Below, one piece after another: positions 7,618 to 48,299 of a stretch of 64,000 nucleotides of DNA. The stretch spans positions 13,123 to 77,122 of the IMG/VR virus record IMGVR_UViG_3300028490_000007. One strand, 5' to 3'. The translations under genes were made by a program, and so were the position numbers. This DNA is from a virus. Position 1 is the first letter of the stretch; each line of letters starts with the position of its first letter. The notes beneath the pieces were generated by a model that worked only from the letters and a program-made list of their open reading frames with translations, did not search any database and was not told the DNA's origin.

Positions 7618-8925
7618 ATGTTAACAAAGATAATAGACTTTCAGGTAGGACAAATGGAGATTGAGCACAGTTCTTGTTTTGGTGGCGTTTGCCCAATGAC
7701 CAAGACTGCATCAGAGAACCCTCTTGAGAAGATCAACCAAAAGAAAAACCATGCATACCTACATGTTATTGCTATGGGTGCAGGTGACTTCTATGGAGAG
7801 AACAACAATGGTGACTTCTTCTACGAGAAAGACCTTAGAGAATATTACAAGACATTTGAGACAGCAGGTATTTTTGTACAGCATTTCAACAAAGACCCTT
7901 CTAAGTCAATAGGTAATATTGTAAAGGCTATATATAATGAGGACATGCATCGTGTTGAGCTTCTTCTTGAGATAAAAAAGAGTAAAGCAAAAGATATCTA
8001 TGATGATATCGAAGCAGGAAGAAGAATTAAAGTGTCAATGGGTGTTAAGGTTCCTCAAGAGATGTGTTCATATTGTGGCTCAATCACAAAAGGGTCTCTT
8101 GCCAATAGATGTAACCACTTGAAGTTCGAGATGCATGAACAGAAAGAGAATGGCCAAATTGTATATGCTATAAATATACCTCCTATGAATTTCTTTGACA
8201 TATCTGTAGTGCGTAAGCCTGCGGACACTCAAGGGCATGCTTTGTTTCAAAAGGTTGCATCAGAAGAGGAAGAATTTTCTATGCAGGACAAGGTAGCAGA
8301 ACTTGTAAAAAGGATAGAGGCTATAGACGCTCTTCCTAATGCTGTAAGTGTAGACGAGATGGATAAATTCAGAAAAGGGTTCAGTCCAGAAGCTATAGTT
8401 AGAATAGTTAACTCAAAGCATATGATGTTCAAGCCATCAGAAGCACTGTTTATTGGGTCCAAGATGCCCAAGGAGGAGTTTTCTTCATGTCAGGCTACTT
8501 GTGATACTCCGGGCTTCATTAAGATCCTCATGGACAAGCTACATTCACAGCCACCATGTGCAATGATGAAACATGCTTCCGACACAGACTTGGACTACTC
8601 TAATGATTTTATAGCCAAGATAGAAGCTCGTACATTTTTAATCAAAGAAGCCATGAATGCAGTAAACAGCACAGACTTCTTTGGAAACCAGAAGAAGGCA
8701 CGTCCTGCTTCTGTGGCAAGAAGGGCTTTTAATAGACATAAGTTTTCTCAATACAAAGTAAACTTTACTGATGGGAAAAGTGTAACTCTTTCAAGACAGG
8801 GGTTTGGTGTAACATCAGATATCCCTGCATACTATGTAGACCTTGTTGATGATGGGTTTGCTCACAATATCACTGGTGTACGTGCAAATGGAGATGAAGC
8901 AATCTTATATGCAGGAGAGAAGTAA
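7618..8925 (+). CDS. Prohead (capsid maturation) serine protease, HK97/assemblin-like fold with Cys/His Zn-binding insert
   Basis: NNNGDFF motif, candidate catalytic His (FVQHFNKD..SIG), candidate catalytic Ser (VSMG), CSYC...CNH insert and FFDISVVRKPAD end motif, all typical of large-phage prohead proteases. Confidence 0.75.
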   Translation: MLTKIIDFQVGQMEIEHSSCFGGVCPMTKTASENPLEKINQKKNHAYLHVIAMGAGDFYGENNNGDFFYEKDLREYYKTFETAGIFVQHFNKDPSKSIGNIVKAIYNEDMHRVELLLEIKKSKAKDIYDDIEAGRRIKVSMGVKVPQEMCSYCGSITKGSLANRCNHLKFEMHEQKENGQIVYAINIPPMNFFDISVVRKPADTQGHALFQKVASEEEEFSMQDKVAELVKRIEAIDALPNAVSVDEMDKFRKGFSPEAIVRIVNSKHMMFKPSEALFIGSKMPKEEFSSCQATCDTPGFIKILMDKLHSQPPCAMMKHASDTDLDYSNDFIAKIEARTFLIKEAMNAVNSTDFFGNQKKARPASVARRAFNRHKFSQYKVNFTDGKSVTLSRQGFGVTSDIPAYYVDLVDDGFAHNITGVRANGDEAILYAGEK

Positions 8926-10328
8926 TGAGTGGTCACGTTGGAGTTAAGTCTGGACGTGTAAAATCTGTCACAGAAGGCGAGACAGTAATTGAACTAGACA
9001 ACGGTCATGAATTAACACTCCCTAGATATCTAGGAGAAAGTCCAAGAAGAGGAGCTGCTGTAGTAGTAGACTTCTCTTCTGGTGATGCACAAATATTCCC
9101 TGCTCCCCCACTAATGAAAGTATCTAAGCAAAAAAGATACATGAACTTCAATGCTGTTGAGAAAGACGGAACGAAGCCCACAGTAGAGCCTGAGCAGAAG
9201 CCTATGAAGAGAGGCGAGGGAAAGAAGGACGTTCAAGAGATTGCACAATATAGCCTGTTTGGTTTTGCGGATACTCCCTATGGAGCCAGAACCCTTACTG
9301 CAGGAAATGGTAACTTATGCTTTGCAAGTCCAACGGCTGTAGGTATGGCTACCTCTTGTAGTGCAAAATTTATTATACGTGATGATGGAACATCAGAGTT
9401 TGTTACTCCACACTATATGGCACTGGAAGGAAGAACAATAGTAATTAGTTCATTCCATGATAATCTAAAAATAGAAATAGATATATCTTCTTCAAAGCTT
9501 GGAAAGTCCCCTATTGATTTTACGGACTTAAAAGAAAAGCTTGCCAACTTCATGGTAGGAAAAGATATTGTAGAGCCAATGACATATGAAGAGGCTTTCT
9601 TGGCAGTTTCTGGGTCTGCACCAGAAGCAGCATTTCTACAAATGTTCGGGCTTCATTTAGCTGAACTACTTGTGACTTTTAAGTGGGAAAGATTATTGTT
9701 CCGAGGAAATGAACAAACTTTTCACGAGGTATTTGGCTCCGTATCGTCACTGGATGCGATGTACCAATTCTGTCAAGACTGCTACAATACAGACTCTGTG
9801 GCTGAACTGGAAGTATTTCTAATTGACGGACTTCCTGATGATCCAACAGAAGAAGTAAATGTTCCTTCTTGTGAAGATAAGACATATGGAACTATTGGTT
9901 CAATGGGAGCTGTTGTAGGGCAAGACTTCTTTGAGATATTCGCTTTAAACATGACGCTTAAAGATGGTACAGTTATAGAATACAACAGGGCTAAAAGAGT
10001 GTATTCTCTATCCCATGGAATTATGGCTAGTCACCAATGGACATCTTCAAATAAGGGAGCTATCTATTGTGACAACTATACTGTAAATATAGACTCGCTT
10101 GCGTTCCCTGATTTGACGGTGTCCCCATCGGCAGAGGGTTTTTGTGGTGGCACTATTGCTATCCCAACAATTACCTGGGGTGGAGACTTCAACTTAAACG
10201 TGCTTGGTGATGCATCTATTACAGCCGCAGGAGACACTCTCTTGTATGGTGGTGGTAGAGCAATTATCGGAGGTGGATCAAAAGGTATTCTTATTGACTC
10301 CTCTGGTTCGGCAGCAATCACCCTATAG
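8925..10328 (+). CDS. Baseplate central spike (gpV/gp5-like), putative
   Basis: N-terminal OB-fold-like segment (GRVKSV...ESPRRGAAVVVDF). C-terminal short beta-strand repeats (GDFNLNVLGDASITAAGDTLL). Confidence 0.5.
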   Translation: MSGHVGVKSGRVKSVTEGETVIELDNGHELTLPRYLGESPRRGAAVVVDFSSGDAQIFPAPPLMKVSKQKRYMNFNAVEKDGTKPTVEPEQKPMKRGEGKKDVQEIAQYSLFGFADTPYGARTLTAGNGNLCFASPTAVGMATSCSAKFIIRDDGTSEFVTPHYMALEGRTIVISSFHDNLKIEIDISSSKLGKSPIDFTDLKEKLANFMVGKDIVEPMTYEEAFLAVSGSAPEAAFLQMFGLHLAELLVTFKWERLLFRGNEQTFHEVFGSVSSLDAMYQFCQDCYNTDSVAELEVFLIDGLPDDPTEEVNVPSCEDKTYGTIGSMGAVVGQDFFEIFALNMTLKDGTVIEYNRAKRVYSLSHGIMASHQWTSSNKGAIYCDNYTVNIDSLAFPDLTVSPSAEGFCGGTIAIPTITWGGDFNLNVLGDASITAAGDTLLYGGGRAIIGGGSKGILIDSSGSAAITL

Positions 10329-10340
10329 AAAAACACATTT

Positions 10341-10352
10341 TTTGTGTATAAT
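10341..10352 (+). promoter_or_regulatory. sigma70-type -10 (TATAAT) preceded by T-tract
   Basis: TTTTTTGTGTATAAT about 30 nt upstream of the ATG at 10383, with AGGAG SD. Confidence 0.55.
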
Positions 10353-10382
10353 AACAGTAACTAAAAAAACAGGAGTATCAAA

Positions 10383-10925: not shown

Positions 10926-10934
10926 GGTTAACCC

Positions 10935-12677
10935 ATGGATGCACTAAGAGAACTCAACAAGCTTATGCCAAGCGACGTACAGTTTACTGGTGCAGACATG
11001 CCTTTAACTAAGGCATCTATAATGCCGAAGTTAACACAATTCGCTTCCAAACACCCTTCCCTCTACGCACAAAAGATACACAAAATACGTGAACTCGGAG
11101 AAGAGCTTGCCTACTTAAATGGTCACAACATGGGACCAAAAGATTTAACATATTCAAACCAAAAAGATATTGATAAGCTTCTGTCCACCGAAGATGCTAA
11201 GGTTCGTAAGATGAGCCCAGAAAAAGCAAAGACGCATCTTATCAATGTATTTAATCAAGTCCAGAACATAGTTATGAAAAACAAGGATAACAACCTAGTG
11301 TCTCAGGCTGCTTCTAAGGGAAGAGGTAATCCTGCCACAGCTTCAAGGATTGGAGCAGGAGTTGTATATGCAGTAGATATGAATTCAGAGCCCTACCCCT
11401 TTATGATAAAGAACAGTTTATCTACAGGACTAAATGCTCATGAGCAATATGTATCTGGAGGACAAGCAAGATATGCTGCCGTTCAAGCAGCCGTATCTAC
11501 TTCTGAACCAGGAGCAATGGGCAAGGTTCTTATTGCAAATACCGAAGACCTAAAGATCGCAGAAAAAGATTGTGGGACAAGAAACGGTATCATGGTTCCG
11601 GTTATGGGGAATGATGCTATATCAAGATATGAAGCAGGAACGAACAAACTTGTAGATGAGCAATATCTAAAATCCTTGAGAGCAAGAGGCAAGCGTAAGA
11701 TTAAAGTCCGATCACCAATAACTTGCAAGTCAAGACATGGCGTGTGCTCAATGTGTATGGGAAAAAATTCTAACGGCAATCTTCCAACAGTAGGTCACAA
11801 TGTTGGGATAGAGGCTGCTCAATCTATGTCTGAAAAAGCAATACAGCTCATTCTTAGTGCAAAGCATAATGTCGCAGGTAAGACAGCTTCTCATATTCCT
11901 ACAGGATTTCAGGCAGCCAAGATACTGCTAAACTCGACAGAGAAATTCAAAGGGAAGGCGGCTGTATCCTCTATTGGTGGAAATGTCAAGTCTATACACA
12001 AGCTTACTACTGGTGGGTACAATATCAACATATCGGGAGTAGACCACTTTACTTCACAGCATGTTTCCCCGAAGGTTACAGTTGGGTCAGTGGTAGACAA
12101 GGGAGATATCTTAACTAATGGTATCGCCTCTACAAAAGATATTCTATCCCACAGAGGCGTATTAGAAGCCAGAAAGTATTTGTCTGACGAGTTGGACAAA
12201 GTGCATGGTGGCTCCATAGACAAGAGAAACTTTGAAGTTGTAAGTAGAGGGTATCTAAACCTCGTTAAACCGATGAGCGATAAGTCTCATGGCAATATGA
12301 AAACATTTGACGAATTTGTTCCAACTATAAATGGAACACATATGAAAATGATGAACACATCAGACAAGCAAATAACTAAAAAATTCTTAGCTGAACCGGC
12401 TCTGCATTTTAGCCCAGGTAAACAAATTACAAAAACAGTGGCTGGCTATTTAAAGAAAAATGGGGTAAAATCCGTTAAGGTTTCTCATACTCCTCTTGAT
12501 TACACACCTGTATTCAAGACGTATGAGCAGAGACCTCTATTCAATAAGTCTATGTGGCAACAGATAAACTATAGAGGCATCAAGAAGGGACTCACTGATG
12601 GACTACTGTCCGGAGGTGAAGAGGATCTTAATCATATAAAGTCTGATAGAGCCCGTTTCGCTCTAGGCATACTATAA
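10935..12677 (+). CDS. rpoC: DNA-directed RNA polymerase beta' subunit, C-terminal half (split RpoC, RpoC2-like)
   Basis: Collinear RpoC motifs: ELGEELAYLNGHNMGPKDL, SKGRGN, bridge helix GLNAHEQYVSGGQAR...STSEPG, Zn site DCGT...RSPITC...GVCSMCMG, trigger loop GHNVGIEAAQSMSEKAIQLILSAKH, IDKRNFEVV, C-terminal GIKKGLTDG. No NADFDGD catalytic loop. Confidence 0.9.
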   Translation: MDALRELNKLMPSDVQFTGADMPLTKASIMPKLTQFASKHPSLYAQKIHKIRELGEELAYLNGHNMGPKDLTYSNQKDIDKLLSTEDAKVRKMSPEKAKTHLINVFNQVQNIVMKNKDNNLVSQAASKGRGNPATASRIGAGVVYAVDMNSEPYPFMIKNSLSTGLNAHEQYVSGGQARYAAVQAAVSTSEPGAMGKVLIANTEDLKIAEKDCGTRNGIMVPVMGNDAISRYEAGTNKLVDEQYLKSLRARGKRKIKVRSPITCKSRHGVCSMCMGKNSNGNLPTVGHNVGIEAAQSMSEKAIQLILSAKHNVAGKTASHIPTGFQAAKILLNSTEKFKGKAAVSSIGGNVKSIHKLTTGGYNINISGVDHFTSQHVSPKVTVGSVVDKGDILTNGIASTKDILSHRGVLEARKYLSDELDKVHGGSIDKRNFEVVSRGYLNLVKPMSDKSHGNMKTFDEFVPTINGTHMKMMNTSDKQITKKFLAEPALHFSPGKQITKTVAGYLKKNGVKSVKVSHTPLDYTPVFKTYEQRPLFNKSMWQQINYRGIKKGLTDGLLSGGEEDLNHIKSDRARFALGIL

Positions 12678-12693
12678 AAACAAGGAGAAACAA

Positions 12694-13560: not shown

Positions 13561-13573
13561 AACACCTCCAAAT

Positions 13574-13600: not shown

Positions 13601-13637
13601 CATTCCACAACAAAGCCTATTGTTATCAAAGAACTTT

Positions 13638-13695: not shown

Positions 13696-14295
13696 ATGAT
13701 TACATGTAAAGAACTAGAAAAGACCGCTGCCTCCGTGGAAGCAGACGGCTTTGAAGATGAAAACCAAGAGAGACTTGAGAAAACAGCACAGGCATTATAC
13801 TTGCTTGACCACCTAGAGAAAGAGATAGCTTCTGACTTTAAGGGTGTTGATTTCGAGAAGACAGCCGGGTTCGGCAAAAAAATGACACGTGGATTAGCTC
13901 AGACAGCAGTTGTTGGTTTGGGCGTAGCTATGGCAGGTAAGCTTGCCGAGCATGCCGAAAAGTCATACGATAAGCATATGTTCAATAAACACCAGAACGG
14001 TCTCATCGCTTTTGCAAGAAGAGAAAACCCTAGCCTTCAAGGTGTAAGCAATGGGAAAATGAAGATGTGGCTACGTAGTGCATATTCTGTTTCTCCCAAA
14101 GTAGCAAACGATCCAATGCTTGCCTCAACCTTTCTAAACACAGCTCATGCCGTAGGTGGTGTTGATTTAAACACTGCCAAGACAGTCAGCGATATAAATG
14201 CAAAAGGGGGAGGAGATTACTCAAAAGTATATGATGCAATTCGTGGATCATCTTCAAATCTCCCCTCTTATGCTATGTCTTCTTCAGGAGCGTAA
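13696..14295 (+). CDS. Putative internal head protein with K-x-A motifs (acidic pro-region + basic/hydrophobic part)
   Basis: LEKTAA, LEKTAQ and FEKTAG in an acidic N-terminus, then GFGKKMTRGLAQTAVVGLGVAMAG. Confidence 0.55.
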   Translation: MITCKELEKTAASVEADGFEDENQERLEKTAQALYLLDHLEKEIASDFKGVDFEKTAGFGKKMTRGLAQTAVVGLGVAMAGKLAEHAEKSYDKHMFNKHQNGLIAFARRENPSLQGVSNGKMKMWLRSAYSVSPKVANDPMLASTFLNTAHAVGGVDLNTAKTVSDINAKGGGDYSKVYDAIRGSSSNLPSYAMSSSGA

Positions 14296-14296
14296 C

Positions 14297-15329: not shown

Positions 15330-15701
15330 ATGAAAAAAGATATAAATGTAGCAGACTTGGTAGCTTCAGTTACTGACGAGCAAAATGAGAAAAAAGCACT
15401 TAACAAAACTGCTGGACTAGCTTCACTAAAAGAGCGTATGTCTGGAGGAACACTTTCTAAACATGCAGAAGATGCAAAAGTTGTAGCTGATGCGGTAGCT
15501 GATGAGATAGGTGTAAATTCACTTTCTTTGTCTCAACAACTCGAAAAAGTAGCCTCTGAAATGGAAGGTGCAAACTCAGTAGAGGACATTATCAAAATTG
15601 CATCGTCTTTAGACAACTCAGACTTGGCTCATATCTCAACTATCTCAGCAAAAATGGCTGACGTTGTATTTGCTGACCTTCAAAATAAACTAGAAGCATA
15701 A
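15330..15701 (+). CDS. Small helical K-x-A-motif protein (scaffold-like)
   Basis: LNKTAG, LSKHAE, LEKVAS, IIKIAS, AKMAD. Confidence 0.55.
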   Translation: MKKDINVADLVASVTDEQNEKKALNKTAGLASLKERMSGGTLSKHAEDAKVVADAVADEIGVNSLSLSQQLEKVASEMEGANSVEDIIKIASSLDNSDLAHISTISAKMADVVFADLQNKLEA

Positions 15702-15712: not shown

Positions 15713-17539
15713 ATGGCATCAACTATATTAACAGGTAATGATTTCCTTACTAATAGTAACTTGGCTCTAGTTGGCCAAGATGGAAATGTGTCCATTAACA
15801 GAGTGCGTTCAAATGATTATGACGTTGCTCTTGTTTCAAGAGATGCATTCGACTTCACTACGGGTAATAAATCTGTCCGTTTTGTATTCAGCGTGGCTCC
15901 ATATACAACTGCTGCAAGACCGGGTGTTTTCGGTGCCGGTGCAGTAGGTAGATTTGCAAGCCTTGTTGATGACGGAACTTCTATTGAGTGGAAAGGTGAT
16001 ACTTTCAGTTCTCCTTGCCCAGGAACTCCAGATTGTCAAACTATGACAAAATACCAGTGTAATAAATACTACTCTGCAGATGCTTCAAGTTCACACTCTA
16101 TCGTTAAGACAGGTCAGTGCTTTGGAACATCTGGCGACAATACTCATGGGCAACTAGATTTGACTACCGTTGAGACAATAGAAGGTATCGCTTGTGGTAA
16201 TGGGTTTACTGTAATCATGCGTAATACTGGAGTTGTTGAGGTTATCGGAAATGACCAAGGTGGGGACATTGTTGTTCCTGCATCATGTGTCACTTTTGAT
16301 GAGAACGATAGACCCGTCTCTATTGTGGCAGGAGAAGACTTCTTTGTTGTGCTTAAGCGTGACGGTACAGTTGTGTCTGTTGGTTCTATTCTGACAACAG
16401 CATTCTCTACAATCGAAGAAACTATTGTTGAAATGTCAGCAGGTTCAAACTTTGTAGTTCTTCTGTCTTTATCTGGACAGATCTTCAGTATCGGAGGAGC
16501 AGGAGCAAACGGTGAGTTAACTCCACCATCTATAAAGGCATTAAAGGTGTCTGCCAGTGCCAACAGAGCTGTTATTCTTGCAGAGAATGGTAATGTGTAT
16601 GAATGGGGAGAAGGTCTTGCTGATGTCCAGCAGGTTCAATCTATTCCATCTGGCTCACAAGTTATAGATGTTATTGCAGGGGAAAGCTTTTCCATGGCAG
16701 TCCTTAAAGATAGATCTGTTGTTATCTCAGGTTCTGTGCCTGCATATCTTTCTGACATTACAGGAGAGAAGAGTGGTAATGCTGAGAGTATTTCTGAAAT
16801 GGATGATGCCTACGACATGTTCCCTATGCTTAGAAATATAACGGGCGTGAACATCATGGCAGGAGTTCAAGAAGATAATCTTGATAGCACTTATCACAAA
16901 TATGTAGCACCAGATAATACGGTTAAACCTATCGTTGTAGGAAGAGACGGATTTAGTTCTGTATTTACAGGTATACGTGGTGGCTTCAAAGGTGCTATTA
17001 TTGCTAAGACAGACAATGGTGGAGATATGTGTTTTGACCTTAGAGGTTCAGAATACGACCCTTACACAGCAACAGGTCACTTACCAATTTCAACTGACTT
17101 TATCACATCAAATGCGGCAGAGAAATATGAGGTTATAATCTCATTCAGTCCATTTGGTAAGATGATTAAGTTCAGAAAAGTAAGTGGTGAATATGCTCAA
17201 GATATGCCGTTCAAACATTTATCTGTTGAAGAGACAGGATATTCTGCAGGTCGTGTAGCCTTATACGTTAGAAATGCAAAGGACTTCGTTCTTGATTTTG
17301 CAGAAGTTACAGATGAGATAAATGCATCTATTCTTCCTGCTGACATACTGTATAGGGATATGGATACTGCGGTATTACACACTCAGGCTGCAGAGCTAGT
17401 AGTTGACTTGGCTGATGCTGTGGAAACTATTGGTGACGCTGTTACTAAGTCATCTGAGACTGTACGTTCTCTTAATGCGAACTACAAACAAAACTTGGCT
17501 GATATTTTCTCAAGACTTGAGACACTAGAGGCAAACTAA
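15713..17539 (+). CDS. RCC1/BLIP-II repeat beta-propeller protein (fibre/receptor-binding candidate)
   Basis: About 6 RCC1 blades (IACGNGFTVIMRNTGVV, IVAGEDFFVVLKRDGTVVSVG, MSAGSNFVVLLSLSGQIFSIG, AVILAENGNVYEWG, VIAGESFSMAVLKD). C-terminal coiled coil. Confidence 0.8.
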   Translation: MASTILTGNDFLTNSNLALVGQDGNVSINRVRSNDYDVALVSRDAFDFTTGNKSVRFVFSVAPYTTAARPGVFGAGAVGRFASLVDDGTSIEWKGDTFSSPCPGTPDCQTMTKYQCNKYYSADASSSHSIVKTGQCFGTSGDNTHGQLDLTTVETIEGIACGNGFTVIMRNTGVVEVIGNDQGGDIVVPASCVTFDENDRPVSIVAGEDFFVVLKRDGTVVSVGSILTTAFSTIEETIVEMSAGSNFVVLLSLSGQIFSIGGAGANGELTPPSIKALKVSASANRAVILAENGNVYEWGEGLADVQQVQSIPSGSQVIDVIAGESFSMAVLKDRSVVISGSVPAYLSDITGEKSGNAESISEMDDAYDMFPMLRNITGVNIMAGVQEDNLDSTYHKYVAPDNTVKPIVVGRDGFSSVFTGIRGGFKGAIIAKTDNGGDMCFDLRGSEYDPYTATGHLPISTDFITSNAAEKYEVIISFSPFGKMIKFRKVSGEYAQDMPFKHLSVEETGYSAGRVALYVRNAKDFVLDFAEVTDEINASILPADILYRDMDTAVLHTQAAELVVDLADAVETIGDAVTKSSETVRSLNANYKQNLADIFSRLETLEAN

Positions 17540-27493: not shown

Positions 27494-28939
27494 ATGACAT
27501 TTTTTCAAAAAGTAGCAAGCTTCGGACAAGCAGTTCAAGCAAGCGAGGACGTAGAAAGCATCGTAAAAGTTGCAGCAGAGAGTGATGTATCACGTAACGA
27601 TCTTATTGTATTACACAACCTAACAGTAGGTAATGTATACACAGGTGAAGATATTGTAAAAGTTGCAGAGGACGAAGCAGATAGTATTCTACTTGTAGCT
27701 GTATCAGCATACGAGAAAGTAGCATCTGGAGAAATCGACGAAGCACAAGCTATCTCAATGGTAGAAGAAGCTGGTCTTGTAGCAGACGATCTTTATGACG
27801 TTGCAGGTCTTATTGACAAGCAAGCATCAGAAGCTGGCGTTGTTGCAGATCAAGATGTATGGGAAAAAGTAGCTGAAGCTCATGAGTTCCTTGTAGAAGC
27901 AGGACTAGATCCAGTAGCTTCAATGGAATTTGCTGAAACTTATTCTGCTGCAGAAGATGGAGAAGCTCAAGATAAAGTAGCTTCAGAATTTGACGGGCTA
28001 GACGAAGAGTCTTTTGACAAAATCGCAGAAGCTCATGAATTCCTTTCAGACATTGAAGGTGTTTCGCTTACTGATCTTATGGATGAGTATGACAAAGAAG
28101 CAGGTTCTAAAGTTGACGCTGCAAAAAAAGCACTTAACTCTGTGAAAGACGATCTTTCAGGAGAAAAGTCTAAGCGTGTAGCTAAGTCAATGAAATCTGG
28201 TCTTTGGAATAAAAAATCTAAAGAAGATGTTGGAATGAAGTCATTCGGTGTCTATTCGCAGAAGAACCTTAAAGGTAAGCAGAAAGCTGTAGAAAACCGT
28301 AAGCATTTAGCACGTGGTGGAGCAGCAGTAGCAGCACTTGGTGCAACTGGTGCAGCGGCAGGCTCAATGAGTAAAGAAGCATCAGAAGCATTCCAAGCAG
28401 AAGATGCAGTATGGGAAAAAGTAGCTGAAGCTCATGAGTTCCTTGTAGAAGCAGGACTTGATCCAGTAAATTCAATGGAATTCGCTGAGACTTTCTCTGC
28501 AGCAGAAGATGAAGAGGCTCAAGATAAAGTAGCTTCAGAGTTTGATGGTCTTGATGAAGAGTCAATCGATAAGATTGCTGAAGCACATGAGTTCCTTTCA
28601 GACATCGAAGGTATTTCGCTTACTGACCTTATGGGTGAGATTGAGAAAGAAGCCGGTTCTAAAGTAGACGCTGTTAAAAAAGGTCTAAAGAGAGCTAAAG
28701 ATGACTTTACTGGTGCAAATGCTAAAGCAGTTGATAAGTCAATGAAATCTGGTCTTTGGAATAAAAAATCTAAAGAAGCTGCAGGCGTTAAATCGTTTAA
28801 AGGCTACAGCAACAAGACACTTAAGGGTAAGCAGAAAGCTGTTCATACTCGTAAGAACTTAACTCGTGCAGGTGTTGTTGCCGGTGGTACTGCTGTTGCA
28901 GCAACTGGTGCAGACGCTACATTTAACGGTAGAGGGTAA
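27494..28939 (+). CDS. K-x-A-motif polyprotein-like head protein with internal duplication
   Basis: About 15 K-x-A motifs. Alternates acidic blocks and Lys-rich blocks that end in Gly/Ala hydrophobic stretches. Confidence 0.65.
   Translation: MTFFQKVASFGQAVQASEDVESIVKVAAESDVSRNDLIVLHNLTVGNVYTGEDIVKVAEDEADSILLVAVSAYEKVASGEIDEAQAISMVEEAGLVADDLYDVAGLIDKQASEAGVVADQDVWEKVAEAHEFLVEAGLDPVASMEFAETYSAAEDGEAQDKVASEFDGLDEESFDKIAEAHEFLSDIEGVSLTDLMDEYDKEAGSKVDAAKKALNSVKDDLSGEKSKRVAKSMKSGLWNKKSKEDVGMKSFGVYSQKNLKGKQKAVENRKHLARGGAAVAALGATGAAAGSMSKEASEAFQAEDAVWEKVAEAHEFLVEAGLDPVNSMEFAETFSAAEDEEAQDKVASEFDGLDEESIDKIAEAHEFLSDIEGISLTDLMGEIEKEAGSKVDAVKKGLKRAKDDFTGANAKAVDKSMKSGLWNKKSKEAAGVKSFKGYSNKTLKGKQKAVHTRKNLTRAGVVAGGTAVAATGADATFNGRG
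27857..28939 (+). repeat. Intragenic tandem duplication, 552-nt (184-aa) period
   Basis: GTATGGGAAAAAGTAGCTGAAGCTCATGAGTTCCTTGTAGAAGCAGG at 27857 and 28409. KSMKSGLWNKKSKE occurs in both copies. Confidence 0.95.
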
Positions 28940-28962: not shown

Positions 28963-29211
28963 ATGAGCACTTATTCTTTTGCAAGAGATGCGATGTCTGG
29001 CAAGTCTGTCAGACAAGCTAAGAAACTTAGAAAAAGTCTAAAAGCAAGTGGTGCTAACGATGCAACAATGAAAGCAGCTTCTAAAAGCGTAAGGAAATCC
29101 AAAGCGGAAAGTACATACGTTAGAGGAACTGCTGCCGCTGGTGCAGGTGGAGCATACATTGCTACAAAAGACAAGAAAGACGACGATAGCTTTATCCCAA
29201 AAGACTATTGA
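28963..29211 (+). CDS. Small basic protein with Gly/Ala stretch
   Basis: 82 aa, AAGGAG SD, Lys/Arg-rich, contains VRGTAAAGAGGAYIAT. Confidence 0.6.
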   Translation: MSTYSFARDAMSGKSVRQAKKLRKSLKASGANDATMKAASKSVRKSKAESTYVRGTAAAGAGGAYIATKDKKDDDSFIPKDY

Positions 29212-29272
29212 CTTTCACCCTCCCATCCAAGGATGCGAGGACTGAGGGCCCATGAAAAGACAAGGACATAGA

Positions 29273-30328
29273 ATGGACTATAAAACACTAGCCATATCAA
29301 TAGCATCAGCAGAAGACCCTTACGGTGAATTTGCAAAAGAAGCGTCGGATTTAGACGAAGTGCATAAGACAACTCTAGCAAGAGAAGTTAATAAGCAAAT
29401 GTTTATAAGCAGACTAGACGGACGAGAAGGTGATGGACATATCGACTTCGACGTTATAGAACCTGAGTTGAAAGATACTCATGTGACAAAAAGTGTAGGA
29501 GATCCAACTGTGGAAAAAGTAGCATCAGAACAGCCTAGCAAATCTCCTCTTGAGAAGAGAGCTATGGTTGAAGACTCTATGTTTGTCGTTGCACCAAGAC
29601 AGACTATTAAAGCAAAATCAACAACAGGTGGAAGTGCTAAAACTTTCAGAAAAATAGCAGAGCATATTATAGACGATGACTTAGATAGAATTTCAGACAA
29701 AGAGAAACAAGCTTTTGATGAAACTAAAGTCAGAGCTGTAGCTTTATTGAATGATATGTTTGGTGCAGAGCTAGAAGGCATCACTAAGATGGCTGACGAT
29801 GCCTCTGAGCTTAGATCCGTGATAGGTGCAGCCATTGGTAAGGGATTGAGTAATGTAGTCCCTGAGATAGTAGCTATATCAAATGACGCAGAGAGTACGC
29901 TTCTTAAGGTGGCATCAGTTGATTTAGATGACACTAGAGCTAAGGCTGTCGATGCTTCACTTGACTATATGGTTAATCTGAACGAAGCAAAAGCATTGGT
30001 GAAACAAGCTTCCACACAACAAGAACTTGATAAGCTTGCATTCATCGCCCCATTGCTAGGGGGAATAGCTCGCTTGGGTTTTAATGTAGCCAAGGGTGCA
30101 GCCAAAGGTGGCCGTGCTCTTGGCAAGGGTGCGTGGGGGACAATGAAGCTACCTGGTAGAGTTACCGGTGCGACTAAGAACCTGCTCACTTTGAAAAACC
30201 CAGCTAAGGGTTGGAAGGATGGAGGGGGCTTAATGACAACATTAGGAACCACTGCTGTTCTTGGAGGGGCTGCTCTTACAGCAGGTCCAACTATGGATAA
30301 ATATCAAGAAATGACACAACGCATATAG
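29273..30328 (+). CDS. K-x-A-motif head protein with cationic amphipathic C-terminal segment
   Basis: ATG at 29273 after AAGGA. About 9 K-x-A motifs in an acidic region, then FIAPLLGGIARLGFNVAKGAAKGG...TAVLGGAALTAG. Confidence 0.6.
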   Translation: MDYKTLAISIASAEDPYGEFAKEASDLDEVHKTTLAREVNKQMFISRLDGREGDGHIDFDVIEPELKDTHVTKSVGDPTVEKVASEQPSKSPLEKRAMVEDSMFVVAPRQTIKAKSTTGGSAKTFRKIAEHIIDDDLDRISDKEKQAFDETKVRAVALLNDMFGAELEGITKMADDASELRSVIGAAIGKGLSNVVPEIVAISNDAESTLLKVASVDLDDTRAKAVDASLDYMVNLNEAKALVKQASTQQELDKLAFIAPLLGGIARLGFNVAKGAAKGGRALGKGAWGTMKLPGRVTGATKNLLTLKNPAKGWKDGGGLMTTLGTTAVLGGAALTAGPTMDKYQEMTQRI

Positions 30329-37997: not shown

Positions 37998-38252
37998 ATG
38001 ATAAAAGCTTTTGAAGACAAAATATTAGCCAAACGTGTAGGTGAAGATAACCTTACATCAAAGGGCGTAGTTAAAACTTCTACCAATAAAGAGAAGCCGT
38101 TAAAGGTGGTTATTATTGACAGTGCAGTCAGTGAAGTGGTAAAAGGTGATACCTTTCTTATTGCGAGATTTTCAGGAATGGAATTTGAGTTCGAGAATGA
38201 AGAATATCTGACTATTGGTATCGATGATATAATCGCAAGGATTACGTCATGA
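37998..38252 (+). CDS. groES: Co-chaperonin GroES (Cpn10)
   Basis: IKAFEDKILAKR...VKGDTFLIARFSGMEFEFENEEYLTIGIDDIIARI matches the Cpn10 pattern. ATGA overlap with groEL. Confidence 0.85.
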   Translation: MIKAFEDKILAKRVGEDNLTSKGVVKTSTNKEKPLKVVIIDSAVSEVVKGDTFLIARFSGMEFEFENEEYLTIGIDDIIARITS

Positions 38253-39685
38253 TAAAATCAACAGGTCCTAATTCTAATGAGTTTGTCAAAAATGTGATGG
38301 AGCAAGTATCTTCTTTGGTTGAGGTAACATACGGTCCCAGTGGTGGATTTGTAGTCTTATCAAATGGAAATACCTCACTAGCAACAAAAGATGGAGTTTC
38401 TGTTATTAGAGCACTCGTCTCCAATGATGATTTAGAACAAGCAGTCATTAGTGTGATACAAGAAGCAGCCTTGAATACTCTTTCTAAAGCAGGTGATGGT
38501 ACGACGACAACCATTGTTCTTGCAAACCAACTACTCAAATCATTCTCTACTTACGACTATATGAAAAAAGAAGAAATCATCAAGTCTGTAAAAGAGGAAA
38601 TCCGAAAAAAAAGCAAACCTGTAACTATTGGGTCAGATGCACTTACGTCTATCGCTATGACCTCAACATCTGGAGATAAGTCATTGGCGAAAACAGTATT
38701 GGAAGCTTTCACCATAGCAGAGAGCCACGGTATCTCTGGCGTTATTGCAGAGCCTCATTTAGGAAGATGTACTTCCGTGGATACTGTTGATGGAATAAGC
38801 TTTACCGGTAATATGATTGACACTATATTCTATGATAGCCAAGAGCTTAGAACAAAGAGTGCTATTGATCCACATATTATATTTGCTATGGATGAGGTGT
38901 CTGGTGAAGATGATATAGTTGAACTCATAACTACCTGTGTAAACAAAGGGGTTGAAGATCTAATTATTATCGCTCCATCTTTTGCAATGACCTCCTTATC
39001 TGCTCTGTCTATAAACCATAAGGTCTCAATGAACCTAATGCCTATTGCAGTAGATGGTGGTGATGCAGTCCGAACAAAAATGGCTATTCAGGCTATTGCC
39101 ACTGCTTTAGGAGCAACTATTGTTGGTGAAGAAAGTGGAGTGTCTATCGGCGATGTCTCAGAGGATATGATTATCCCCGTAGGAAAGATCTCTATATCTG
39201 GTAAATCTGTTGTTGTCTCAGGATACGATAACAGTTCAAAGGAGAGCATCAACGAACTCGTCAATAGATATGAGTCAAAGCTTAGAGCCGTTGCTTCAGA
39301 TGAAGAAAGAGACATGATTAAAACTCTCATCTCAATCCTCAAGAAAAAAATGGTAAAAGTCATAGTTGGAGGGCACACTTTAAACTCAATCACTGAGAGA
39401 AAAGACCGTGCTGACGACTGTATAAACTCTGTAGAACTAGCACTAAAAGGCGGTGTCGTTCCAGGAGCAGGACGAGCATATACCAACATGGGGATAGGCA
39501 TCAATACTGGCACGAATATAGATAAGGCTGTAGAGGCTGTATCTAGGATAATCAACAAAGGGGAAGTGTCTCCTACAGCACTCCAAACCCTAGACCCGAC
39601 AATAGTCGCAGAGATCGTCGCAGAGCAGGCTATAGAGCTTGCATTCATGCTAGGTATGACAAGAGCTGTCGTACTTACACAATAA
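38249..39685 (+). CDS. groEL: Chaperonin GroEL-like (Cpn60), short and divergent
   Basis: TYGPSG, TKDGVSV, AGDGTTT, ERKDRADD and GGVVPGAG motifs. 478 aa, no GGM tail. Confidence 0.92.
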   Translation: MIKSTGPNSNEFVKNVMEQVSSLVEVTYGPSGGFVVLSNGNTSLATKDGVSVIRALVSNDDLEQAVISVIQEAALNTLSKAGDGTTTTIVLANQLLKSFSTYDYMKKEEIIKSVKEEIRKKSKPVTIGSDALTSIAMTSTSGDKSLAKTVLEAFTIAESHGISGVIAEPHLGRCTSVDTVDGISFTGNMIDTIFYDSQELRTKSAIDPHIIFAMDEVSGEDDIVELITTCVNKGVEDLIIIAPSFAMTSLSALSINHKVSMNLMPIAVDGGDAVRTKMAIQAIATALGATIVGEESGVSIGDVSEDMIIPVGKISISGKSVVVSGYDNSSKESINELVNRYESKLRAVASDEERDMIKTLISILKKKMVKVIVGGHTLNSITERKDRADDCINSVELALKGGVVPGAGRAYTNMGIGINTGTNIDKAVEAVSRIINKGEVSPTALQTLDPTIVAEIVAEQAIELAFMLGMTRAVVLTQ

Positions 39686-43746: not shown

Positions 43747-43747
43747 A

Positions 43748-44374
43748 TTATACCTCCTGCGTATTGTTTCGTATATATGATTTACGCATTCTAGCACGAA
43801 GCTTATTAAGACCACTATAGTACGCACCATTTGACATACCAGTATGCTTCAGTGCCTTTGGCGTTGACATGCCTTTCTCTATAGTCTCTGATATCTTCTT
43901 TTCTTTACCAGACAGGTCAGGCAATAGTGACTGCATAGAGACATAATTTGTCCCTCCACCAAACTTGTCAGTTACGACAGCTTTTATTTGACCCATCTTC
44001 TTATATTTGTTTACAAACTTTGACTTAAAGCCTGTGTGCTTAGCTAGTTCTGCATCTGTAGCATCTCTACCATGCATCATGTAAAGCTCATCATTAGCTG
44101 TTCTCAACTTGTTTATTGCCATACCTACGTCTTCACTAACTTTTAAGTTAGAACTAGACTCGTGTACGTCTCTCTTCAGTTTGTTGAGGTGATTGCTTAG
44201 GTGAGTTTTAAATGAGGCATTCTTTGTTTTATCAAAAGTACGCTCTGCATTTTGCGAGTACGTATATAGCTTATAATCCAGTTCAGCAGGAGATAGCTCT
44301 GACGAGTATGTCCGTTTGAAGTGGTTTATTGTATCCATATGGCCTGAGACCATAGGACTATATACGTTGCTCAT
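43748..44374 (-). CDS. sigma70-family RNA polymerase sigma factor (regions 2-3-4, divergent)
   Basis: Region 2 AERTFDKTKNASFKTHL, region 3 INKLRTANDELYMMHGRDATDAELAKHTG, region-4-like HTH LSGKEKKI...GMSTPKALKHTGMS. Confidence 0.8.
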   Translation of the reverse strand: MSNVYSPMVSGHMDTINHFKRTYSSELSPAELDYKLYTYSQNAERTFDKTKNASFKTHLSNHLNKLKRDVHESSSNLKVSEDVGMAINKLRTANDELYMMHGRDATDAELAKHTGFKSKFVNKYKKMGQIKAVVTDKFGGGTNYVSMQSLLPDLSGKEKKISETIEKGMSTPKALKHTGMSNGAYYSGLNKLRARMRKSYIRNNTQEV

Positions 44375-44689: not shown

Positions 44690-44699
44690 TTTATATCCT

Positions 44700-44969: not shown

Positions 44970-44979
44970 GGTAGATCCT

Positions 44980-45954
44980 TTATTTTTGTTGCGTAGCCAC
45001 AAACATAGCTATAGCTTCTTTCTCTTGTGGACTTGCAGCATCTGTAACATTCTTTAACATGTTTATGTCAAGTGTTCCTTCGCTAAACAATTCCGATACA
45101 AGAGGTCGAGGAAAGACGTCTGTCCAGTCCTCTGCATCTATTGATGCAATCTTTTCCGTTGGAACTTCTTCATCCCCTATGCTATACACATCAGACACTT
45201 GACCTGGTATAACAAGTTCTAAGATAGCTTCTTCAGCAGTCTTCTCGAACCCGTTAACTTCATCAAGATCTAACATATCAAACACAAGAGAGGCAACCTT
45301 CTCTACTGAGTAGAGATTGGTCCCACTTAATTCAGATGCTAACTTTTCATAGCTATCATCCCCCGTAAGTAGTTTTCTGTCATGTAGAATGCTTCGTGCC
45401 GTTGAGATGTCTATAGTACCATACAACCCAAGAGAAAGAGTAGTGTCAGATACAGGCTCGCCAAGCTCTTCAGCTTTCTTAACCAGTTGTCTGTTAGCAA
45501 CTACTAAATCTTCCGAGGACAGCATACTAGCTACCTTCTCAAGTGCACTGCTTGACATCCTAAGAGTGTCAGCATCCACAACAGGAAGTTTACGTTGAGC
45601 TGGAAGAAGGAAATCAGAAGCGTCTAATTGCTCAGGCTCTGATGCCACTTTTTCCAACGAACCGATTTGAACATCTAGTCCAAACAAAGCACATGCTTCT
45701 TCACACGCTTCCTTGACAAAGCCGGGAACGTCTTCGTTCCCTTCAAGGTAAACACTTGACACAAGAGCATGTGCAGGTGAGTATATTGGGAACAACTTTT
45801 CATCCGGCCAAGCGAAAGCCTCTTTTGTGAGATCATTTCGTTCGTCCATAGGCAACGCTGCAACTTTTTCAAGTCGGTGTGCTGCCCCATCAGTCTCGGC
45901 AATTTTTTCCTTAAGGATTATCATATCCACGTCATTGAGTGCATCAATTAGCAT
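44980..45954 (-). CDS. Acidic K-x-A-rich scaffold-like head protein with two DUF6582-like repeats
   Basis: About 12 K-x-A motifs (LEKVAA, LEKVAS x2, YEKLAS, VEKVAS, FEKTAE, TEKIAS). Repeats FAWPDEKLFPI and FLLPAQRKLPV. Confidence 0.6.
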   Translation of the reverse strand: MLIDALNDVDMIILKEKIAETDGAAHRLEKVAALPMDERNDLTKEAFAWPDEKLFPIYSPAHALVSSVYLEGNEDVPGFVKEACEEACALFGLDVQIGSLEKVASEPEQLDASDFLLPAQRKLPVVDADTLRMSSSALEKVASMLSSEDLVVANRQLVKKAEELGEPVSDTTLSLGLYGTIDISTARSILHDRKLLTGDDSYEKLASELSGTNLYSVEKVASLVFDMLDLDEVNGFEKTAEEAILELVIPGQVSDVYSIGDEEVPTEKIASIDAEDWTDVFPRPLVSELFSEGTLDINMLKNVTDAASPQEKEAIAMFVATQQK

Positions 45955-46051
45955 GGTGTCCTCCTTCAGAAAGCATTTGCTTTAGGTACTTGATGATTAG
46001 ATGAGCTAAAATCATTCTCTCTATCTTCTCTTTACATACTCCGTCAAGCAT
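45944..46051 (-). CDS. Small ORF missed by the track (35 aa)
   Basis: AAGGGG SD, then MLDGVCKEKIERMILAHLIIKYLKQMLSEGGHHAN*. Fills the intergenic gap exactly and overlaps the next start. Confidence 0.5.
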   Translation of the reverse strand: MLDGVCKEKIERMILAHLIIKYLKQMLSEGGHHAN

Positions 46052-46063
46052 ATTAGCCCCTTA

Positions 46064-46519
46064 CTATTTTGTACGCTTTGTGCGTTTAGGTGCTGCTACA
46101 GTTTCGATAACTTCAGGTTCTTCCTTTACAGGAGCCTCTTCAATTTTCTCTTCTGTTACAGCTTCTTTTTCTGTAGCGTCTGAAGCATCTGCTTCACTTG
46201 TTTGTGTTTCTGTTTTTTCAGTTTCGCTATCAGGGTCAGTTTTATCTTCTCCAGCATTTGCGTCTGGTGTTGTGTCAGTAGCTACAGGAGGATTTTTATC
46301 CTCCGTAGTTTCTACAACATCTTCACTATTATCTGCTGAAGTTGATTTACCGGCATTACCAAAAGACAATCTTCTCTCTTTAATCATACGATCAATGTAA
46401 GATGCTTTACGCTCAAAGTCTTTTTGTAAAATCTTCTCTGTCTTGCCGGGTTCGATTGTAGTCATTCCGACTGCAATGTTCCCCTTAGACAGATTTGTTA
46501 GGTAAATATCAACTCTCAT
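46064..46519 (-). CDS. Hypothetical protein with acidic low-complexity tail
   Basis: Immediately downstream of the capsid gene. T/E/D/K-rich disordered C-half ending PKRTKRTK. Confidence 0.6.
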   Translation of the reverse strand: MRVDIYLTNLSKGNIAVGMTTIEPGKTEKILQKDFERKASYIDRMIKERRLSFGNAGKSTSADNSEDVVETTEDKNPPVATDTTPDANAGEDKTDPDSETEKTETQTSEADASDATEKEAVTEEKIEEAPVKEEPEVIETVAAPKRTKRTK

Positions 46520-46528
46520 ATCAGATCC

Positions 46529-47506
46529 TTATGCTTCGATGTCGGTGAATACACCCTTGTAAACACCTTTAGTGTTACCAATAGCGTGTGCGATATACGC
46601 TTCACTGTCCATAGTCATCATATCTCTATCAACTTCCATGTAAGAAGTGTGATCTTGAAGGATGAAGAAGTGTCCATACATGTCTTGAGGAGCGAAAGTA
46701 TAAATTTCGTTGTTCTTAACAATGTGTGACTTGATTGTTGTAACGATCTTCTTATTCCAGAAGTCAGAGATGTTATCCACACCATCTTCCCAGAATTTAG
46801 AAACAACGCTATCACCAACTTCTTGCATAGTCATATGCATAAGCTCTTGGATAAGAGTCTCTGTCAATAGAACAGTTTTGTTTGCGATACGGTTACGTGT
46901 CGGCATTTGGAACAAGAACACCAAGTTTGACTTGTCTAATGTTTCACCATTATCGAAGTATACTGTTTGTCCTGAGAAACGCTTGTTACCTTGAGTAGTA
47001 AGGTTTCCACCGTTTGCTGCTTTAAACGCTGTCTCTTCGTCACCAAGAACTTGGTTAACTCCACCCATAACTGTCAAGTCTTCAACTTCATACATTGCTT
47101 CCGAGATACGATCTCTAAACAATTTCTTGTAGTCAGTCTTAACTGTCATCATTTCCATTTTTGATTTACGGATCTTCTCAGATACAACTTTTTGGAAGTA
47201 AACTGTGTAACGATCTGTTTCATGGTAACGGAACTCACCACGACCACGTAAAGGAACTGTCATTGCACGTGCATCAACATCTCTCTCTACCATGATTGCT
47301 GGTTGGTCTGTATGCTCAGTAGGAACTAAGTCTTTTGGTGAAATATATGTAGGTTCAACGATCTTACGAGCGAAGCCTTTTTCACGAATTTTGTCTTGGA
47401 TAAAAAGTGAGATACCCTCTGCTGCTTCTTTAACAAATTCAGGGTCACTGAATAGTCTTGAAACGAACTGGCTTGAACTCACTGTAGTAGATACTGCTGG
47501 TTTCAT
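46529..47506 (-). CDS. Major capsid protein (HK97 fold)
   Basis: 325 aa with strong SD, downstream of terminase and scaffold-like genes. IREKGFARKIVEP...AMTVPLRG...ISEAMYEVEDL pattern typical of large-phage capsid proteins. Confidence 0.78.
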   Translation of the reverse strand: MKPAVSTTVSSSQFVSRLFSDPEFVKEAAEGISLFIQDKIREKGFARKIVEPTYISPKDLVPTEHTDQPAIMVERDVDARAMTVPLRGRGEFRYHETDRYTVYFQKVVSEKIRKSKMEMMTVKTDYKKLFRDRISEAMYEVEDLTVMGGVNQVLGDEETAFKAANGGNLTTQGNKRFSGQTVYFDNGETLDKSNLVFLFQMPTRNRIANKTVLLTETLIQELMHMTMQEVGDSVVSKFWEDGVDNISDFWNKKIVTTIKSHIVKNNEIYTFAPQDMYGHFFILQDHTSYMEVDRDMMTMDSEAYIAHAIGNTKGVYKGVFTDIEA

Positions 47507-47517
47507 GTGTTCTCCTT

Positions 47518-47949
47518 TTAACCAAGTACGATAGCGAGCCAGTCGGTTCCACGACCAACAACTGCACCAACTTCAATAGTATTTGTTCCGTCAACGTGAA
47601 CAATAACACCATCTTTTAAAGATACATTGTCGCCTGCTGCAAACGCCGTACCATCCTCTTCATACATTTTAGTGTGAATTAACATCTCACCAAAAAAACC
47701 TTCTACTACGCCGGCAGGTTTCATTCTGTCAAGCATATCATTGTAGTGGCTATCTTCTGTTACAAGAAAAAAAGCTTTCTTTGTATCAGTAAGTGTAATT
47801 TTTGCTCCGTCATAACCAACAAACTCACCAGACTTTACAGCCTCGCCATTCGCCAATTCGATTTCTAGTTTCGGTAAAGCAAGAAAATCTGGAGACACAA
47901 TGTGTACCATTTCTCGTCTACCGAATACCTTATCTGTTTTATAACCCAT
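47518..47949 (-). CDS. Capsid decoration/cement protein, putative
   Basis: 143 aa beta-rich protein directly upstream of the capsid gene (FAAGDNVSLKDG..VGAVVG). Confidence 0.55.
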   Translation of the reverse strand: MGYKTDKVFGRREMVHIVSPDFLALPKLEIELANGEAVKSGEFVGYDGAKITLTDTKKAFFLVTEDSHYNDMLDRMKPAGVVEGFFGEMLIHTKMYEEDGTAFAAGDNVSLKDGVIVHVDGTNTIEVGAVVGRGTDWLAIVLG

Positions 47950-47972
47950 AGGAAATTCCTTCTGTTTTAATT

Positions 47973-48299
47973 TTATTCAAAGTCACTAGGTGACTCGCCT
48001 GAGAGGATCATGTCCAGTCTCGCTTCCGAAGATAAGTCTGAACTCATCGATGGAAGGTCGTCTGCCGATGACCCAAATCCGTTTCCACTTCTAAATGAAA
48101 AACCTTCTTCCGCCTCTTTCTGCAGTGCGGTTTCATGTTTAACATCAGAAGGATCAGAAATCTGGTCCTTCTCTAGGCTTGCTACCTTCAATAACAATTC
48201 GTCTCTCTCAGATGTGATAATTGCTTTTGCGTCAGTAAGATTTTGTATCTCTGTTGCCGCAGCTCTCAACTGAGAAGCGACATGTTGTCTTGTGTGCAT
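47973..48299 (-). CDS. Small coiled-coil scaffold-like protein with K-x-A motifs
   Basis: ATG at 48299 with AAGGGA SD. LLKVAS and LQKEAE. First gene of the capsid operon. Confidence 0.55.
   Translation of the reverse strand: MHTRQHVASQLRAAATEIQNLTDAKAIITSERDELLLKVASLEKDQISDPSDVKHETALQKEAEEGFSFRSGNGFGSSADDLPSMSSDLSSEARLDMILSGESPSDFE

Follow-up and report, generated by a model that had tools for sequence, protein, structure and literature searches.

Which proteins remain in a phage head is set by prohead proteases, enzymes whose short cutting rules have been worked out in few phages and in each case end in Glu. The phage enzymes of the gp21/gp175 family (MEROPS S77/S80) so far characterized all cut after Glu (PMC5694885, PMC10052503, PMC9026906), and the family's motifs are read at P3 and P1, as L/I-x-E, S/A/G-x-E or A-x-E, with SPN3US favoring Ser at P1' (PMC10052503). 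Here we analyzed a 64,000-nucleotide stretch of viral DNA (the window), bases 13123-77122 of the 77-kb IMG/VR contig IMGVR_UViG_3300028490_000007, which is estimated to be 41% complete. The window encodes a putative prohead protease (7618-8925) together with a group of proteins that are dense in the short motif hydrophobic-x-K-x-A (h-x-K-x-A). We conclude that this motif, usually followed by Ser, Glu or Ala, is probably the recognition motif of that protease.

Enzymes of this family also process themselves. SPN3US gp245 autocleaves at AQE-203, 25 residues past its catalytic Asp, and so loses a C-terminal part believed to direct the protease to the prohead (PMC5694885), and phiKZ gp175 and T4 gp21 likewise shed their C-termini (PMC5694885; PMC9026906). 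The substrates of T4 gp21 are gp23, gp24, gp22, gp67, gp68, IPI-III and Alt; the T4 core proteins end up as small peptides that exit the head, and the basic internal proteins stay with the DNA (PMC9026906). T4 also has a capsid targeting sequence of 10 residues (PMC9026906). The herpesvirus assemblins cut after Ala, before Ser or Thr (PMC4498786).

We counted the motif in 55 translated, non-overlapping open reading frames (ORFs) of the window and compared each count with 5000 composition-preserving shuffles of the same protein. Seven proteins, named here by window coordinate (7618, 13696, 15330, 27494, 29252, 44980 and 47973), contained 45 copies of h-x-K-x-A where the shuffles gave 6.0, and 60 copies of K-x-A. 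The density was 2.21 per 100 amino acids (aa) over the 2033 aa of this enriched set and 0.11 over the remaining 48 proteins (20 copies in 18558 aa), a ~20-fold difference. The first-pass annotation, which had counted about 50 copies by hand and placed the start of 29252 at 29273, was therefore right that the motif is concentrated in these proteins and sparse elsewhere, and the examples it quoted were found where it had put them: MTKTAS at 7696, FQKVAS at 8245, FVKEAAE at residues 24-30 of the capsid protein, and the Ser of a VSMG sequence at S140 of the protease. After Bonferroni correction, 27494, 29252 and 44980 were significant in the window, as were their counterparts in five other genomes. 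The small proteins 13696 and 47973 were significant by per-protein shuffle only and lost significance after correction. Two matches are probably structural sequence and not sites: VRKPAD, which lies within the catalytic domain of the protease, and KEAFAWP, which belongs to a conserved core. Elsewhere the motif showed no visible depletion.

The motif was not a by-eye pick alone: when all patterns of three fixed residues were enumerated without bias across the proteins of the entire window, EK.A, K.AS, VAS, L.K.A and KVA ranked highest. It was also strict. Within the seven proteins, replacing Lys by Arg (h.R.A, 2 vs 1.9 expected) or Ala by Ser or Gly (h.K.S, 4 vs 3.9; h.K.G, 0 vs 3.5) gave only background counts, h.K.T was at or below expectation, and shifted spacings were at background, so that Arg, Ser and Gly variants and other spacings were rejected as forms of the motif. 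The sites used both Lys codons (AAA and AAG) and all four Ala codons, with 38 different 9-mers among the 45 sites, which led us to reject a DNA-level motif; with the genes lying on both strands as well, the signal is one of protein sequence.

We then examined conservation in relatives of this phage, whose genome size is ~190 kb. G001 is a close relative with a complete genome of 187,664 bp bearing terminal repeats and a 98% identical capsid protein; G002 and G003 are more distant contigs with capsid proteins 85-87% identical to that of the window. Cultured relatives are only distant (Salmonella phage Arash and Vibrio phages D69, D181 and D148), with identities of 29% for the capsid protein and 32-39% for the protease. 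The seven proteins and the capsid protein were aligned with their orthologues in G001-G003, at identities of 31-73% and 85-98%, respectively. Motif Lys and motif Ala were conserved in 74% and 76% of alignment cells, compared with 47% for other Lys and 45% for other Ala, indicating that the sites are preferentially kept. The footprint extended to P5, which was hydrophobic in 85% of cells (scored by class); the remaining positions were at 35-50%. The 20 matches in other window proteins served as a control and were mostly unconserved in the three orthologues. The exceptions were the capsid site and K594 of the protein encoded at 43-2064, each kept in 3/3, and one terminase site, kept in 2/3. K594 (LVKDADG) lies outside the enriched set; it may mark one real site, or its conservation may simply be that of the surrounding fold.

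A pooled logo of 193 K-x-A sites from 19 significant proteins of six genomes, with Lys fixed at P3 and Ala at P1, gave 1.17 bit at P5 (L/F/I/M), 0.70 bit at P4 (E/V/D/T), 0.71 bit at P2 (V/E/I) and 0.76 bit at P1' (Ser 39%, Glu 15%, Ala 10%). Pro was absent from P4, P2 and P1', and Asp from P2. Beyond P5-P1' there was no preference (at most 0.25 bit).

Table 1. Protease, capsid and motif-rich features of the window, with motif counts for the seven enriched proteins (shuffle mean and shuffle result refer to h-x-K-x-A).
Feature	Position	Strand	Description	K-x-A	h-x-K-x-A	Shuffle mean	Shuffle result
Prohead (head-maturation) serine protease, putative	7618..8925	+	435 aa; phrog_18299, AlphaFold2 fold match	7	5	1.0	
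N-terminal boundary site M-T-K-T-A-S (K29/A31)	7696..7713	+	invariant in 55 homologues				
C-terminal boundary site F-Q-K-V-A-S (K212/A214)	8245..8262	+	candidate autoprocessing ("release") site				
Further protease sites MMKHAS (K318), LIKEAM (K343)	8563..8652	+	kept in 3-4 of four close relatives				
Candidate substrate	13696..14295	+	199 aa; N-terminal sites K9, K29, K55, then conserved basic 142-aa C-terminal part	5	3	0.63	P 0.017
Candidate substrate	15330..15701	+	123 aa, acidic, 4-6 sites	6	4	0.5	P 0.0004
Candidate polyprotein	27494..28939	+	481 aa; acidic stretches with 12 sites and two basic ~93-aa modules	17	12	2.0	0/5000 reach count
Candidate substrate	29252..30328	+	358 aa, 10 sites	11	10	1.1	0/5000 reach count
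Candidate scaffold or core protein	44980..45954	-	324 aa, 9-12 sites; downstream of capsid gene	12	9	0.64	0/5000 reach count
Invariant site L-E-K-V-A-S (K102/A104) of the 44980 protein	45640..45657	-	inter-domain linker				
Major capsid protein	46529..47506	-	325 aa; homology to Arash capsid				
Capsid N-terminal site F-V-K-E-A-A (K26)	47420..47437	-	kept in all close relatives				
Candidate substrate	47973..48314	-	113 aa, acidic, sites K43 and K66	2	2	0.11	P 0.005

The protease had no Pfam family at E <= 0.01, and a sequence search against Protein Data Bank chains returned nothing relevant. Both of its PHROG matches are annotated as head maturation protease (phrog_18299, E 1.5e-12; phrog_3244, E 2e-3), and in tblastn it hit maturation proteases annotated in phages of Gordonia, Erwinia, Dickeya and Xanthomonas. 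An AlphaFold2 (AF2) model built on 55 homologues consisted of a catalytic domain (~32-209; residues 32-209 were confidently modeled), after which came helices (222-348) and, at 373-435, a small beta domain. Residues 39-200 of the model aligned best with T4 gp21 (5jbl_A; Z 11.0, root-mean-square deviation 2.8 A, 128 residues aligned), and herpesvirus assemblins took ranks 2-34 of the structural matches, with Z falling from 10.4 to ~7. Plain Foldseek E-values were all above 0.01, and clear scores were obtained only upon re-alignment. The model thus supports a prohead protease of gp21/assemblin fold, the kinship that had been proposed from the sequence.

The VSMG serine, S140, and H89 were invariant in the 55 homologues. 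In an hhalign alignment S140 fell on T4 Ser140 and H89 lay no more than two residues from T4 His85, in a weak profile match (E 0.1). Assemblins use a Ser-His-His triad, and H111 and H167 were the other invariant histidines here; candidates for the acidic member of the triad are D194 (at least 90% conserved) and D203 (invariant). Residues 150-167 (window 8065-8118) form an insertion with invariant C150, C153, C165 and H167 (CxxC...CxH). Positioned between the catalytic Ser and the acidic residue, it looks like a zinc-binding knuckle that T4 gp21 does not have. The protease gene lies 38 kb from the capsid gene, and the window revealed no second head protease.

Motif copies flank the catalytic domain on both sides, as first noted from the sequence. 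Only 40 alignment columns were invariant across the homologues, and K29, A31, K212 and A214 were among them, with V213 at least 90% conserved. The first site falls in a disordered segment (residues 9-31, predicted local distance difference test score (pLDDT) <50) and the second in a low-confidence linker (210-219), where it reads LQKVAS, LEKAAS or LNKVAS in homologues at only 40% identity. Of the further sites, K318 is in a loop, and K343 ends the helix 330-348, ahead of disordered residues 348-370. We also searched for naturally truncated proteases ending at the C-terminal boundary site, but the one match was an apparent frameshift artefact and did not pin the bond.

The capsid protein was 29% identical to the annotated major capsid protein of Arash over 94% of its length (E 6e-31). 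Even at this distance its single N-terminal copy of the motif, already picked out in the first-pass annotation, was conserved, as GLVKEAG (K27) in Arash and GLTKEAG (K27) in D69. If the cut follows Ala, cleavage after A28 would remove 28 residues and leave 297 aa.

Apart from the protease, the seven motif-rich proteins had no family match in PHROG or Pfam. The same searches left most neighboring genes nameless and did not confirm the "tail" and "baseplate" tags that motif-poor genes had been given. The 44980 protein has a net charge of -37 and is modeled as a helical, two-domain protein (AF2 mean pLDDT 87.8), for which fold searches gave weak helical-bundle matches only (best Z 5.6) and two unnamed phage proteins. 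All 52 of its homologues, down to 23% identity, retained 3-11 sites, and K102 and A104 were conserved in 100% of them. Residues 100-106, the LEKVASE site, are the sole segment of the model with pLDDT <50. The one invariant site and the one disordered segment thus coincide. The other sites shift between homologues, as they would under selection for density and not for position. Assuming cuts after Ala, here as in all fragments given below, the predicted products are ten acidic pieces.

The gene of the 27494 protein contains a 552-nt tandem duplication (window 27827-28939), which exceeds the period limit of 500 of Tandem Repeats Finder. The two copies are 184 aa long and 76% identical in protein by BLAST, and each pairs an acidic, site-rich half with a basic ~93-aa module whose end is rich in Gly and Ala. 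The duplication inflates the raw count; with one copy removed there were still 9 sites where 1.18 were expected. Cleavage would be expected to yield acidic peptides 8-51 aa long together with basic modules of +13 and +16 charge. An attempt to fix the bond by aligning a free-standing 82-aa neighbor (28963-29211) to the basic modules failed (E 0.66).

The sites of 13696 were kept in G001 and G003, and its predicted fragments carry charges of -5, -3 and then +8, the last being the 142-aa product; this protein is weakly similar to Arash gp221, a neighbor of the Arash protease. In 15330, K44, K73 and K89 were kept in all four relatives at an overall identity of 39-58%. The orthologues of 29252 in G001, G002 and G003 were significantly enriched too, and both sites of 47973 were kept in G002 and G003 at 43% identity. 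Outside the incomplete contig of the window, an 802-aa protein of G001 (66894-69302; no Pfam match) has six sites where 1.1 are expected (FEKLAS twice, HKLAS, FYKVAS, FVKTAS and IVKTAQ) and is, judging by these sites, likely a further substrate. A G003 ORF of similar size (157436-159808), likened to it by size alone, has 8 sites against 1.6.

We compared all window proteins with the proteomes of Arash and D69 by BLAST. The protease, the capsid protein, the large terminase, part of RNA polymerase beta', a sigma factor and two weak matches were recovered, and there was no match for 15330, 27494, 29252, 44980 or 47973. In both phages, L.K.A or M.K.A was among the top over-represented patterns, and four proteins in each were significant after Bonferroni correction, three of the four directly around the protease and capsid genes (gp220, gp223 and gp225 in Arash). 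These enriched proteins are acidic and non-homologous to those of the window. The Arash and D69 proteases have 6 copies each where ~1 is expected. Since non-homologous proteins beside the protease and capsid genes are enriched, the motif appears to follow the protease, and this pattern strongly links it to the enzyme rather than to common descent.

Boundary copies were found more widely. Equivalents of the N-terminal site are LTKQAA in Arash and LVKTAA in gp19 of Bacillus phage G, and gp19 has ILEKVAS and LLKIAS after the catalytic domain. It was the only protein with a significant excess among 630 phage G ORFs (7 vs 0.79). At the corresponding boundaries, Kamryn gp97 (a protease fusion from a mycobacteriophage) reads KLKHAE and NNKTAG. 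Because these phages have boundary K-x-A without enrichment elsewhere, there is a hint that the boundary sites may predate the use of the motif across the proteome. We found no processing data in the literature on phage G and Bixzunavirus proteases. The phage G portal protein, gp14, contains FQMAKQAAS near its N-terminus (K18).

Which bond would be cut can be argued by analogy. The family reads P3-x-P1, assemblins of the same fold cut after Ala, Ser is preferred at P1', and conservation ends at Ala/P1'; by these likenesses the scissile bond most likely lies directly after Ala, with a hydrophobic residue at P5, Lys at P3 and Ser, Glu or Ala at P1'. The motifs of known relatives were examined as a hidden signal and rejected, since neither the Glu type nor the herpesvirus type was enriched. 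L/I-x-E occurred 20 times (22.2 expected) and S/A/G-x-E 57 times (47.4 expected, P 0.054), and Glu within such motifs was no better conserved than other Glu, so the Glu-ending motifs that the first-pass annotation had set apart from K-x-A show no significant enrichment here. V/L/I-x-A (47 vs 47.5) and V/L/I-x-A-S (4 vs 3.9) were at background, and the likeness to herpesvirus assemblins is therefore confined to P1 and P1': Ala and Ser there are shared, and P3 is not.

We infer that the seven proteins are head-internal and that they are cut at these sites. In such a scheme, the protease and its substrates would be built into the prohead, where the activated enzyme would free its own catalytic domain by cuts at K29-A31 and K212-A214 and trim 28 residues off the capsid protein. 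The 44980 protein would be cut first in its exposed linker, with further sites following. In 13696, 15330, 27494, 29252 and 47973, the acidic parts would be diced into peptides of ~10-50 aa able to exit the shell, and the basic modules, two of ~93 aa from 27494 and one of 142 aa from 13696, would remain inside with the DNA. A cleavage code is favored in part because the boundary sites bracket the catalytic domain where SPN3US gp245, phiKZ gp175 and T4 gp21 process themselves. The first proposal is partly supported: we observed that the motif is real, specific, conserved and tied to a protease of gp21/assemblin fold; cleavage, the exact bond, packaging in the head and the fate of the fragments are what we infer from it.

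Several points weigh against this scheme. Ala at P1 would be a large change for a family that cuts after Glu, and no cleavage product has been observed for the window phage or any relative. The head-protein status of the seven motif-rich proteins has no independent support. In virion proteomics of Arash, the motif-rich gp220, gp222, gp223 and gp225 were present at high "coverage" with no sign of removal. However, that preparation also contained RNA polymerase, helicase and ribonucleotide reductase, and peptide termini were not listed; being so inclusive and giving "coverage" only, it cannot tell head proteins or processing. Phage G and the mycobacteriophage have related proteases yet no proteome-wide enrichment. 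Finally, the other copies in 44980 lie at helix ends or within helices of a confidently folded model, and those inside helices would be reachable only after unfolding or a first cut, which counts against simple dicing.

Some of these points would suit a motif that is bound and not cut, a signal by which proteins dock to the scaffold, the protease or the inside of the capsid, in the manner of a multiplied capsid-targeting sequence. The many copies per protein, the proximity of the proteins to head genes in Arash and D69, the copies in helices of the folded 44980 model and the detection of motif-rich Arash proteins in particle preparations could all be read this way, and the 10-residue targeting sequence of T4 offers a precedent (PMC9026906). 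We nevertheless consider docking unlikely. A charge contact would accept Arg and a packing contact Ser or Gly, and neither was enriched. Docking also fails to explain the invariant copies that flank the catalytic domain in disordered linkers, or the copy at the capsid protein's own N-terminus, and the i, i+2, i+4 footprint together with the absence of Pro fits an extended peptide in an enzyme cleft.

Because the register is argued by analogy alone, the protease could also recognize the motif and cut elsewhere, after the Lys or 1-2 residues past the Ala, or another protease could read it. Phage HK97 reportedly cuts its capsid protein after a Lys. A.E was mildly enriched (31 vs 21.1, P 0.016), since Glu often stands two residues after Ala. 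Against this, Glu accounts for just 19% of P2' residues, the invariant protease site varies there (KVASH, KVASL, KVAST), Glu within Glu-type motifs is not specially conserved, and the conserved positions stop at Ala/P1', as if Ala were P1. With no second head protease in the window to act as the reader, we find a different bond or a different enzyme rather improbable.

That there is no trans-acting reader at all, and the motif is a by-product of amphipathic helical repeats or duplications in acidic, Lys/Ala-rich proteins, is very improbable. The 184-aa duplication in 27494, the richness of these proteins in Lys, Ala and Glu, and the helical position of several sites would fit such an origin, but shuffles that preserve composition gave 6 copies where 45 were observed, the 193 sites show at most 0.25 bit outside P5-P1' and hence no longer repeat unit, and the enrichment persists without the duplicate copy. 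The motif is also present in protease linkers and in proteins of distant phages that are not homologous to those here, leaving this explanation strongly disfavored. The strict preference for Lys over Arg would suit a covalent modification or cross-linking site whose flanks guide a modifier, but no candidate modifying enzyme tracks with the motif and the protease boundaries and capsid N-terminus fit processing better, so we give this little credence.

Recognition of h-x-K-x-A by the prohead protease would have a wider meaning. A prohead protease with multi-site substrates is a well-known kind of system, and it is the specificity that would be new; our literature searches found no paper describing a Lys-P3/Ala-P1 (K-x-A) rule for a phage protease, in agreement with the first impression that the specificity was unfamiliar from characterized phages. 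We are evenly divided on the broader proposal that a large, almost entirely uncultured clade of ~160-190-kb phages, including Arash, D69, D181 and D148 and with traces in phage G, switched the specificity of its T4/phiKZ-type prohead protease from Glu at P1 to Ala at P1 plus Lys at P3. If so, the assemblins' habit of cutting after Ala would be known for the first time in a phage enzyme, and the processed head proteome and packaged basic cargo could be listed from sequence in nearly unannotatable genomes. It would also provide a related enzyme pair (Glu or Ala at P1; small/hydrophobic residues or Lys at P3) in which to follow the evolution of specificity within the phage-herpesvirus fold, and a portable tag for loading foreign proteins into capsids, like the T4 targeting sequence. 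The claim is directly testable, as Arash and the Vibrio phages are in culture.

Other genes in the window were also noted. A GroEL-like chaperonin gene (38249-39685; phrog_5725, E 5e-62) lies among the virion genes. A 580-aa protein (10935-12677) with PHROG matches to RNA polymerase beta/beta' has homologues in Arash (gp216) and D69, near their protease genes, and a sigma-like protein (43748-44374) matches Arash gp10. A 1390-aa protein (17539-21711) carries a C-terminal PKD domain (residues 1298-1389, E 3e-7) and, from this domain, may be a surface or fiber protein.

Among known systems, a T4-type capsid targeting sequence, a single N-terminal tag of ~10 residues with one cut, is not matched. 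The motif here spans 5-6 residues, and a protein can hold as many as 12 copies, most of them internal; N-terminal copies exist (K6 of 27494, K9 of 13696) but are not typical. The closest cultured-phage proteases outside the clade are phage G gp19 and the Bixzunavirus (mycobacteriophage cluster C) fusions, and the mycobacteriophage fusion differs in not keeping the hydrophobic P5.

Herpesvirus assemblin (pUL26 family, MEROPS S21) shares the fold (Z 7-10.4), and its cuts follow Ala, usually before Ser. It is freed from a C-terminal, scaffold-like part just past the catalytic domain, with a second site downstream (PMC4498786), a layout like that of K212 and K318/K343. Unlike the window enzyme it takes V/L/I at P3, and herpesvirus proteins have few sites rather than 10 per protein.

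The phiKZ gp175/SPN3US gp245 enzymes (MEROPS S80) are distant relatives in sequence, as seen from the Erwinia, Dickeya and Xanthomonas jumbo-phage matches. The first-pass annotation drew its comparison with jumbo phages; a genome of ~190 kb falls just below the usual jumbo threshold. The phiKZ and SPN3US enzymes have proven C-terminal autocleavage directly past the catalytic domain, redundant propeptide sites and Ser at P1' (PMC5694885; PMC10052503). They cut S/A/G-x-E, whereas the motif here has Lys at P3, Ala at P1 and a hydrophobic P5. To judge from its alignment, the window protease has an invariant motif at the boundary that matches the family's C-terminal autoprocessing site, in a predicted disordered linker.

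T4 gp21 (5jbl) is the best structural match, with the catalytic Ser aligned and a similarly very short P3/P1 motif. At twice the length of gp21, the window enzyme carries a helical and beta extension at its C-terminus as well as the Cys/His insertion, and the L/I-x-E pattern cut in T4 is not enriched. The candidate capsid site parallels the N-terminal trimming of T4 gp23 and SPN3US gp75. T4 likewise trims its capsid protein at the N-terminus, cuts its core proteins many times, and has protease motifs near both ends (PMC9026906). In T4, basic internal proteins are freed from acidic propeptides (PMC9026906), and the same arrangement is predicted here from the sequences of the candidate substrates.

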